Of a DNA stretch of 64,000 nt, positions 26,171-26,222 are shown one piece after another. Below the pieces are notes generated by a model. That model worked only from the letters and a program-made list of their open reading frames with translations. It ran no database searches and was not told the DNA's origin. The translations under genes were made by a program, and so were the position numbers. How positions within the stretch are numbered: position 1 is the first letter of the stretch; every line of letters begins with the position of its first letter. The stretch lies in NCBI RefSeq assembly GCF_013315695.1, contig NZ_CP054353.1. One strand, written 5' to 3'. Origin of the DNA: Escherichia coli (lineage in GTDB: Bacteria; Pseudomonadota; Gammaproteobacteria; Enterobacterales; Enterobacteriaceae).

Positions 26171-26174
26171 TGAT

Positions 26175-26204
26175 AAAAAAGCCGATGTCTGCAATGACAT
26201 CGGC
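26175..26204 (-). terminator. rho-independent terminator of argS (hairpin shared with the flhE 3' end)
   Basis: Stem gccgatgtc / gacatcggc (26181-26204); on the minus strand followed by U-run (A6 at 26175-26180). Confidence 0.65.
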
Positions 26205-26222
26205 TGTTGCCGTATAACGCGA

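Follow-up and report, generated by a model that had tools for sequence, protein, structure and literature searches.

In the stretch of Escherichia coli DNA studied here, the convergent genes flhE and argS stop 52 bp apart. An earlier note, made from the letters of the stretch alone, took K-12 to carry a small gene, yecT, between the two, proposed that this gene had here been either never acquired or deleted, and saw in the spacer a single hairpin usable as a terminator from both sides; a K-12 reference with the same 52-bp junction was named as the observation that would overturn the idea. The locus raises the questions of what so short a spacer does between two converging genes, and whether it records an event in one strain or an older state of the site.

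Here we describe the junction in the window, by which we mean the whole analysed stretch of 64,000 nucleotides (contig NZ_CP054353.1), and set it beside complete E. coli genomes, other Escherichia lineages and other enterobacterial genera. Our reading, held with considerable confidence, is that the interval is a Rho-independent argS terminator abutting the convergent flhE stop codon, and that it represents one of two old alleles in Escherichia.

The spacer and its hairpin

The flhE coding sequence (25778-26170, plus strand, 130 aa) is the last in the flhBAE operon and ends with TAA at 26168-26170; argS (26223-27956, minus strand, 577 aa) converges on it and has its stop codon at 26223-26225, both genes being taken from the list of open reading frames. 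The flhE product matches the Pfam family FlhE (PF06366) with 139.9 bits and is annotated as such in strain MSB1_4I, whose genome is 99.9% identical, and ArgS of the window shares 99-100% identity with annotated ArgS proteins. Sequence and reading-frame list agree exactly with the coordinates first given for the two stops, 26170 and 26223, and for the 52 bp between them. The spacer (26171-26222, TGATAAAAAAGCCGATGTCTGCAATGACATCGGCTGTTGCCGTATAACGCGA) is the compact allele of the site, without yecV and yecT. It is too short to hold an open reading frame of at least 30 aa, and the list contains none inside it, which confirms the description of a single hairpin with no reading frame between the genes.

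An Rfam scan of positions 25000-28500 returned one chance-level match only, and no family at the spacer hairpin. Across complete E. coli genomes, the 73-nt stretch that spans the spacer (26160-26232) is found at a median of 1 and a maximum of 2 places per genome. A REP-type or other repeated extragenic palindrome was considered and rejected, the stretch being nearly always single-copy and without an Rfam match. A longer query of 801 bp over the junction is 99.9% identical to MSB1_4I and matches 5425 of 5426 complete E. coli genomes.

The hairpin, identified by folding and by a terminator scan, lies at 26180-26205, begins 17 nt past the argS stop and is assigned to the minus strand as part of the argS terminator. 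Its perfect 10-bp stem contains six G-C pairs (arms 26180-26189 and 26196-26205) and encloses a 6-nt loop (26190-26195). Alone, it folds with a free energy of -17.0 kcal/mol in the argS sense and -17.6 kcal/mol in the flhE sense, and within a 76-nt context the sequence is more stable than its shuffled versions on both strands (z = -4.0 and -3.4, with 0/200 and 1/200 shuffles as good). The two senses part ways immediately beyond the stem. Read with argS, the tail is TTTTTATCAT: a run of six A on the plus strand (26175-26180) supplies the five T after the stem (26175-26179), position 26180 being the outer stem base. The T-tail score is 4.20 and the discriminant +22.6, on a scale of the d'Aubenton-Carafa type (the 1990 formula fed with modern folding energies) whose absolute values are approximate. 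Read with flhE, the T-poor tail at 26206-26222 on the plus strand is GTTGCCGTATAACGCGA, beginning directly after the stem with GTTGCCGTAT (GTTGCC), and scores 1.11 for the T-tail and -31.3 for the discriminant. The terminator scan called the minus, argS strand only at this hairpin, and made no plus-strand call there.

The argS side therefore presents what defines an intrinsic terminator, a stable G+C-rich stem-loop past the stop followed by a U-rich tract, and the spacer hairpin is by prediction a good terminator of this kind for argS only. For flhBAE it is predicted to be at best a weak, non-canonical one. The earlier suggestion of a terminator usable from both sides is accordingly borne out by sequence rules for argS and fails for flhE; it is only partly supported because the flhE-side tail GTTGCC scores -31. 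In the argS transcript, the 10-bp G+C-rich hairpin and the five U that follow it (UUUUUAUCAU; six, counting the closing A-U pair) would cause intrinsic termination. The flhE transcript would form the identical hairpin followed by GUUGCC, and flhBAE transcription would probably end there inefficiently, aided by pausing at the hairpin and by head-on collision with polymerases arriving from argS; an alternative end for these transcripts may be provided by Rho, further downstream. In vitro work on convergent E. coli genes has demonstrated hairpin-dependent termination driven by polymerases colliding head-on (bioRxiv 10.1101/2022.10.23.513370), and by analogy collision could supply the missing termination efficiency for flhBAE.

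A truly bidirectional hairpin, that is, an efficient end for both argS and flhBAE transcripts, strikes us as doubtful. The genes do converge on one hairpin that is stable on both strands and has the A6 run upstream, and collision-assisted cases at hairpins between convergent E. coli genes are documented (bioRxiv 10.1101/2022.10.23.513370); a U-tract, however, is present on one strand only, the plus-strand tail GTTGCC of the window scoring -31 against +22.6 on the opposite strand, with no plus-strand call. Other compact junctions come closer to symmetry. The other major E. coli variant (L062) carries TTTTGCC after the GGC of the stem and reaches a borderline discriminant of -4.8, and the plus-strand tail of E. 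albertii, TTTTGTA, is equally borderline at -3.9, so that the TTTTG tail of these two speaks in favour of bidirectionality. K-12, for its part, also has no canonical flhE terminator, the hairpin between yecT and flhE scoring -83 in the flhE sense, and flhBAE may therefore simply not need one. Set beside the shared terminators of convergent E. coli genes described by SEnd-seq and single-molecule work (bioRxiv 10.1101/2022.10.23.513370), the window has the G+C-rich 10-bp hairpin between convergent stops, the A-run on one side and the canonical U-tract for argS, but its flanks, as predicted here from sequence, are asymmetric, with five T for argS and GTTGCC for flhE.

Two alleles across Escherichia

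In K-12 MG1655, argS ends at 1961795 and flhE at 1962580, with 784 bp between them. This spacer contains yecV (b4778, 14 codons), which lies on the flhE strand and overlaps the left arm of the argS terminator, and yecT (b1877, 162 aa), which lies on the argS strand and encodes a protein of the LprI/DUF1311 family (PF07007, 64.8 bits). Expression of yecT is activated by BglJ-RcsB and partly repressed by H-NS/StpA (PMC3950696). The layout attributed to K-12 was right, with yecV to be added to it, and the 784-bp spacer means that the observation named as decisive, a 52-bp junction in K-12 as well, does not hold. The absence of yecT from the window is borne out, yecV being absent too, and a tblastn search with YecT against the whole 64 kb gave chance matches only (E at least 8).

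The K-12 interval (b1876-b1878) has the same flanking genes in the same orientation, and its final ~55 nt before argS, with their A-run, hairpin and tail, are positionally homologous to the compact spacer. It differs in 729-732 extra bp that carry yecV, yecT and a second hairpin between yecT and flhE, and in the stem of the argS hairpin, which is GCCTGATC in K-12 (K-12-type hairpin GCCTGATCAG) and GCCGATGTC in the compact allele. The extra 729 bp begin directly after the flhE stop and are flanked by A-runs, ACAAAAAAAT just past that stop and AATAAAAAAG ahead of the argS hairpin. Within the 784 bp, the compact spacer finds its best local match in ATAAAAAAGCC-GAT at positions 729-744, the start of the K-12 argS terminator and equally distant from argS; 3-5 of 300 shuffles score as well. 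We also considered, and rejected, the compact hairpin as a chimera of the two K-12 hairpins, the likeness of its left arm to the flhE-side hairpin AAAAAGGCTCGATGTC not being the best local match.

Both arrangements are common. Among 5426 complete E. coli genomes, the 73-nt query located the compact junction in 1781, with an identity of at least 99% in 925, and the K-12 spacer matched 3642 of the 5426, 3554 of these over at least 80% of its length. Together the two counts account for 5423 of the 5426 genomes, approximately 33% compact and 67% with the yecT segment, which, read from the totals of the two counts, fits a segment that is missing from almost all compact genomes. The flhE-argS site is a clean species-wide dimorphism. 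Most of the other compact matches (97.3% identity among the matches listed) look like the L062 type, which differs from the window by two substitutions, with the loop TGCCAT and with TTTTGCC after the GGC of the stem. Judged by strain names and serotypes in the match lists, the compact side includes O2:K1:H7 APEC, and the yecT side K-12 derivatives, O157:H7, O55:H7, O111:H8, O103:H2, O145:H28 and KO11FL. In some lineages yecT is decaying, by an IS1 insertion or as truncated Shigella forms. The proposal that yecT was never acquired or was deleted is thus correct in that the gene is absent, but the strain-level event it implied gives way to an old allele carried by 33% of genomes and by E. albertii.

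The alleles extend beyond E. coli. A scan for FlhE in one genome per species gave 56 loci (the type genomes of E. fergusonii, E. marmotae and E. ruysiae lie outside this sample), and junction boundaries were set by direct inspection and local alignment. A 55-bp compact junction occurs in E. albertii (L007, and L068 from a second strain) and in L005, a genome labelled E. coli that is 8-10% diverged from E. coli in argS and flhA-flhE; the flanks of E. albertii and L005 together differ from E. coli by 7-12%. These junctions share with the window the prefix TGATAAAAAA and the stem GCCGATGTC/GACATCGGC, and differ from it in loop and tail. The window, L062, L005 and E. albertii all have one and the same stem, with 0 substitutions between E. 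coli and E. albertii, against a tail in which 5 of 18 positions differ and a rearranged loop. Such invariance fits selection on the stem, a pattern that is not statistically strong. At the same site, yecV-yecT are present in E. whittamii (L006, L069) and in Escherichia sp. E1V33 (L004), in spacers of 771-787 bp.

Identity of the yecT segment to K-12 is 94.3% in E1V33 and 91.8% in E. whittamii, about that of the flanking genes, and the compact spacers of E. coli are 83-87% identical to those of E. albertii and L005. The yecT segment thus differs between species by 6-8%, as its flanks do, and both alleles are therefore old, approximately as old as the splits between Escherichia species, with a single inferred origin for each; the compact junction goes back to the split from E. 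albertii. An argS tree and a flhA-flhE tree disagree on whether compact and yecT-bearing E. coli strains group by allele, which shows recombination near the site and a blurred history.

The end of flhE itself differs between lineages. In E. albertii, L005 and many E. coli, the FlhE of the compact allele is 131 aa long, with an extra C-terminal Gln codon followed by TGA (CGG CAG TGA in E. albertii, CGC CAA TGA in L005, at 4385-4396 in L005 and L007); the 131-aa cluster has 2596 member sequences, labelled E. coli. In the window (26165-26173) and in L062 the Gln codon is now TAA, and FlhE is 130 aa again. The extra Gln and its TGA appear to derive from former intergenic DNA.

In 200-bp bins, the window differs from K-12 by 1-4.5% over most of its length, by 6-7.5% over flhE and by 2.5% on the argS side. 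An imported block signalled by a spike of divergence around the indel was considered and rejected, the value over flhE being too modest to interpret. Elsewhere in the motility region, the bin at 22371-22570 (the cheZ-flhB intergenic region and the 5' end of flhB) reaches 14.5%, against 1-4.5% in its neighbours, and flhB of the window has a GTG start and an N-terminal sequence (MSDEIDD...) unlike that of K-12. The same gene (22559-23707, plus strand) carries a TGG to TGA nonsense change at codon 345 of 382 (23591-23593), with loss of the last 38 residues; flhB of MSB1_4I is annotated as a pseudogene with an internal stop, and the exact 61-nt nonsense allele occurs in 2 of 5426 complete E. coli genomes. 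Inside motA lies a 1426-bp IS4 element (11820-13245) whose transposase reading frame (11833-13179, minus strand) scores 304 bits for the NCBIfam IS4 family and which is bounded by a 12-bp target duplication, CGGCAGATGGGG, at 11808-11819 and 13246-13257; the IS4-motA junction has 0 matches among complete E. coli genomes and is private to the strain. IS4 in motA and the stop in flhB suggest, from their sequences, that the strain is non-motile. In tap, an in-frame internal deletion of ~1374 bp relative to K-12 (~19252-19266, with 15 nt of ambiguous overlap at the junction) is shared by 1058 of 5426 genomes, which list what is left of the gene as a 'Tar ligand binding domain-containing protein'; uropathogenic lineages typically lack a functional Tap. 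The IS1H of K-12 MG1655 upstream of flhD is absent from the window (~10178-10185), K-12 being ~770 bp longer there.

Descent of the compact allele

Other enterobacterial genera provide a view of what preceded both alleles. In Salmonella, Citrobacter and Enterobacter, flhE and argS are likewise convergent neighbours and argS ends with a terminator made of an A-run, a hairpin and a T-run, but the distance between the genes in other genera is ~2-3.9 kb instead of 52 bp. The Salmonella interval (L009) encodes a 379-aa glycoside-hydrolase-like protein and a 623-aa PBP2 paralogue, the latter of which we take to be PBP2SAL. PBP2SAL has been described as absent from E. coli (PMC7933661). An alignment of Salmonella, two Citrobacter species and both Escherichia alleles reveals a common frame of AT, A-run, GCC, stem-loop and GGC, continuing into a T-rich stretch, a short tail and the argS stop. 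On this alignment, the compact spacer is best read as the bare ancestral argS terminator. The architecture of the compact Escherichia junction recurs between argS and its upstream neighbour in several other genera (for example in Enterobacter RIT418); in Enterobacter and Leclercia that neighbour finishes with TGATAATAAAAAA, after which come a hairpin and TTTTTT a few bases from the argS stop.

Traces of the outgroup interval are found in the yecT alleles. Most outgroup loci read have a conserved motif, TGTTTTATAAATCAGTGA, downstream of flhE, and the compact allele lacks it; 30-47 nt past the flhE stop, K-12 has TGTTTAATAACTCAGTGA and E1V33 has TGTTTAATAAATTAGTGA, each matching the motif at 16 of 18 positions, with mismatches that overlap only partly. 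Ahead of the argS hairpin, Salmonella GGCAATAAAAAGGCCTGAG resembles K-12 GGCAATAAAAAAGCCTGAT (19 nt, 95%, E = 0.007). From these remnants it would follow that the yecT allele was built on the ancestral interval by replacement of its interior, and that simple insertion into a compact junction could not yield it. At the protein level, tblastx detected no significant remnants of the outgroup genes in the Escherichia spacers (E at least 0.06); the informative traces were confined to short nucleotide motifs in corresponding places. As separate observations, the DNA of K-12 yecV (L001 2838-2882) partly resembles Salmonella L009 7810-7870, between the argS terminator and the start of the PBP2-paralogue gene, and yecV may sit in a remnant of that ancestral intergenic region. 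A further motif, AGAAACGCTGTTTTATAAATCAGTGACAC, is strongly conserved ~84-101 nt past the flhE stop in most outgroup genera read (for example L008 3962-3979) and resembles an operator or a promoter element serving the glycoside hydrolase gene that follows.

We infer that the compact allele arose once, long ago, through a deletion, and that it is probably a derivative of something larger. The deletion would have brought the final sense codon of flhE up against a point just a few bases ahead of the A-run in the argS terminator, giving flhE a new stop in the form of the extra Gln and TGA, with CAA since changed to TAA in the window. The arguments for a single origin and for the breakpoint rest on sequences of 5-20 nt.

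A recent deletion, in which yecV-yecT disappeared from a K-12-like spacer of 784 bp in this strain or in its close ancestors, is highly improbable, even though K-12 and 67% of genomes have the segment, the A-runs that flank it in K-12 (ACAAAAAAAT and AATAAAAAAG) could mediate slippage, and yecT is visibly decaying in some lineages through IS1 and the truncated Shigella forms. We exclude it as the source because it would not recreate the junction and stem GCCGATGTC/GACATCGGC that E. albertii and L005 share on flanks 7-12% diverged, and because neither K-12 hairpin (GCCTGATC... or that between yecT and flhE) contains the compact stem; the junction is also found in 1781 E. coli genomes whose flanks represent at least two diverged backgrounds. 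The other origin named in the earlier note, that yecT was never acquired, can be taken to mean that the compact junction is the ancestral Escherichia state into which yecV-yecT were later inserted, as foreign DNA, between the stop of flhE and the argS terminator. The segment looks like acquired DNA: it has 38-40% G+C against 52-58% in both flanks, its yecT is partly repressed by H-NS/StpA (PMC3950696), its extra 729 bp start directly after the flhE stop, and E. albertii and L005, the lineages of greatest divergence in the sample, are compact. YecT-like genes, however, are AT-rich even within contigs of 50-55% G+C, and low G+C therefore does not date the acquisition. The yecT alleles moreover keep the outgroup-homologous TGTTTTATAAATCAGTGA match, which the compact allele lacks, and the Salmonella-like GGCAATAAAAA(A)GCCTGA ahead of the argS hairpin, so that import by homologous recombination from a donor already arranged as flhE-yecT-argS would be needed. 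We regard a compact ancestor as a tentative reading, on the unlikely side.

The retained remnants would fit with an early Escherichia ancestor that exchanged the hydrolase and PBP2-paralogue genes for yecT and with a later, single deletion of ~729 bp that produced the compact allele, both alleles having persisted or been exchanged since. Such a series, from 3 kb through 784 bp to 52 bp, is the most economical; it leaves ancestral flank remnants in the yecT allele that are missing from the compact one, and the A-runs at both ends of the extra segment suit it. Against it stands a small difference upstream of the A-run, where E. albertii and Salmonella read GCAGTG and all yecT alleles read TAGATG, the CAGTGA of E. 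albertii aligning with Salmonella CAGTGGCAAT at that point; only 5-6 nt are informative. Taken as a whole, this path through a yecT-bearing intermediate too is possible rather than probable. The GCAGTG and TAGATG variants weakly favour instead an ancestral parent of ~3 kb from which the compact allele would descend with yecT never present, and it is to this direct descent from the gene-bearing ancestral arrangement that we incline, if slightly.

yecT and the meaning of the dimorphism

What compact strains go without depends on what YecT does. Its relatives fall into a group of 83-98% identity, from E. coli and Shigella and in part truncated, and a group of ~60% identity. For the homologues of 60-62% identity, three of the five contexts read are type VI secretion (T6SS) clusters (L061, L065 and L067), in which the YecT-like gene is followed by PAAR, a gene for 386 aa and, in L061 and L065, TssM. 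In L065 the order is VgrG, a 761-aa pesticin/lysozyme-like protein, an LprI gene and the YecT-like LprI gene, and the 761-aa protein passes the Pfam gathering score for the pesticin/lysozyme-like toxin domain (28.2 against 25.8 bits). The T6SS module of L065 had no megablast match in the 5426 complete E. coli genomes. The contexts of L064 and L066 have no T6SS genes visible on the contig. These two homologues (L064 6001-6585 and L066 3743-4324; 62% and 61% identity, 193-194 aa) lie on AT-rich contigs (35% G+C in L064) and are each followed by a conserved 257-aa protein without a Pfam match; the L064 pair adjoins flgE and flgD.

Proteins of the DUF1311/LprI family are known as T6SS immunity proteins, namely as immunity to a Pantoea lysozyme-like effector, as cited in PMC12135965, and as Etsi4 of EHEC (PMC12981562). 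YecT resembles them in belonging to the LprI family and in having homologues within T6SS clusters. It differs in that K-12 yecT, between argS and flhE, has no effector or T6SS genes beside it and would be an orphan, and in that the window has no such gene at all. From gene neighbourhood, yecT may be an orphan immunity gene against lysozyme-like T6SS effectors. A larger proposal is that the site is a trans-species dimorphism (in E. coli, E. albertii, E. whittamii and cryptic lineages) of an orphan T6SS immunity gene, kept by fluctuating selection from antagonism; this we consider a long shot. As another candidate role, YecT as the flagellar biogenesis regulator UmoC (NF041434) was rejected, with 36.1 bits against a cut-off of 120; T6SS-linked LprI proteins score 23-36 bits on the same model, and the match reflects no more than the superfamily. 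No relative of YecT turned up in a sequence search of the PDB.

The compact junction is a routine argS terminator in a common, old and annotated allele, and as such ordinary pan-genome variation. The gene that it goes without, yecT, is an accessory gene that any E. coli pan-genome will show as present in some strains and missing from others. For the genus, the junction would be what remains after loss of ~3 kb that other genera have kept. If the lead towards orphan immunity were true, compact strains such as this one would be sensitive to pesticin-family effectors, and the dimorphism would be ecologically meaningful.
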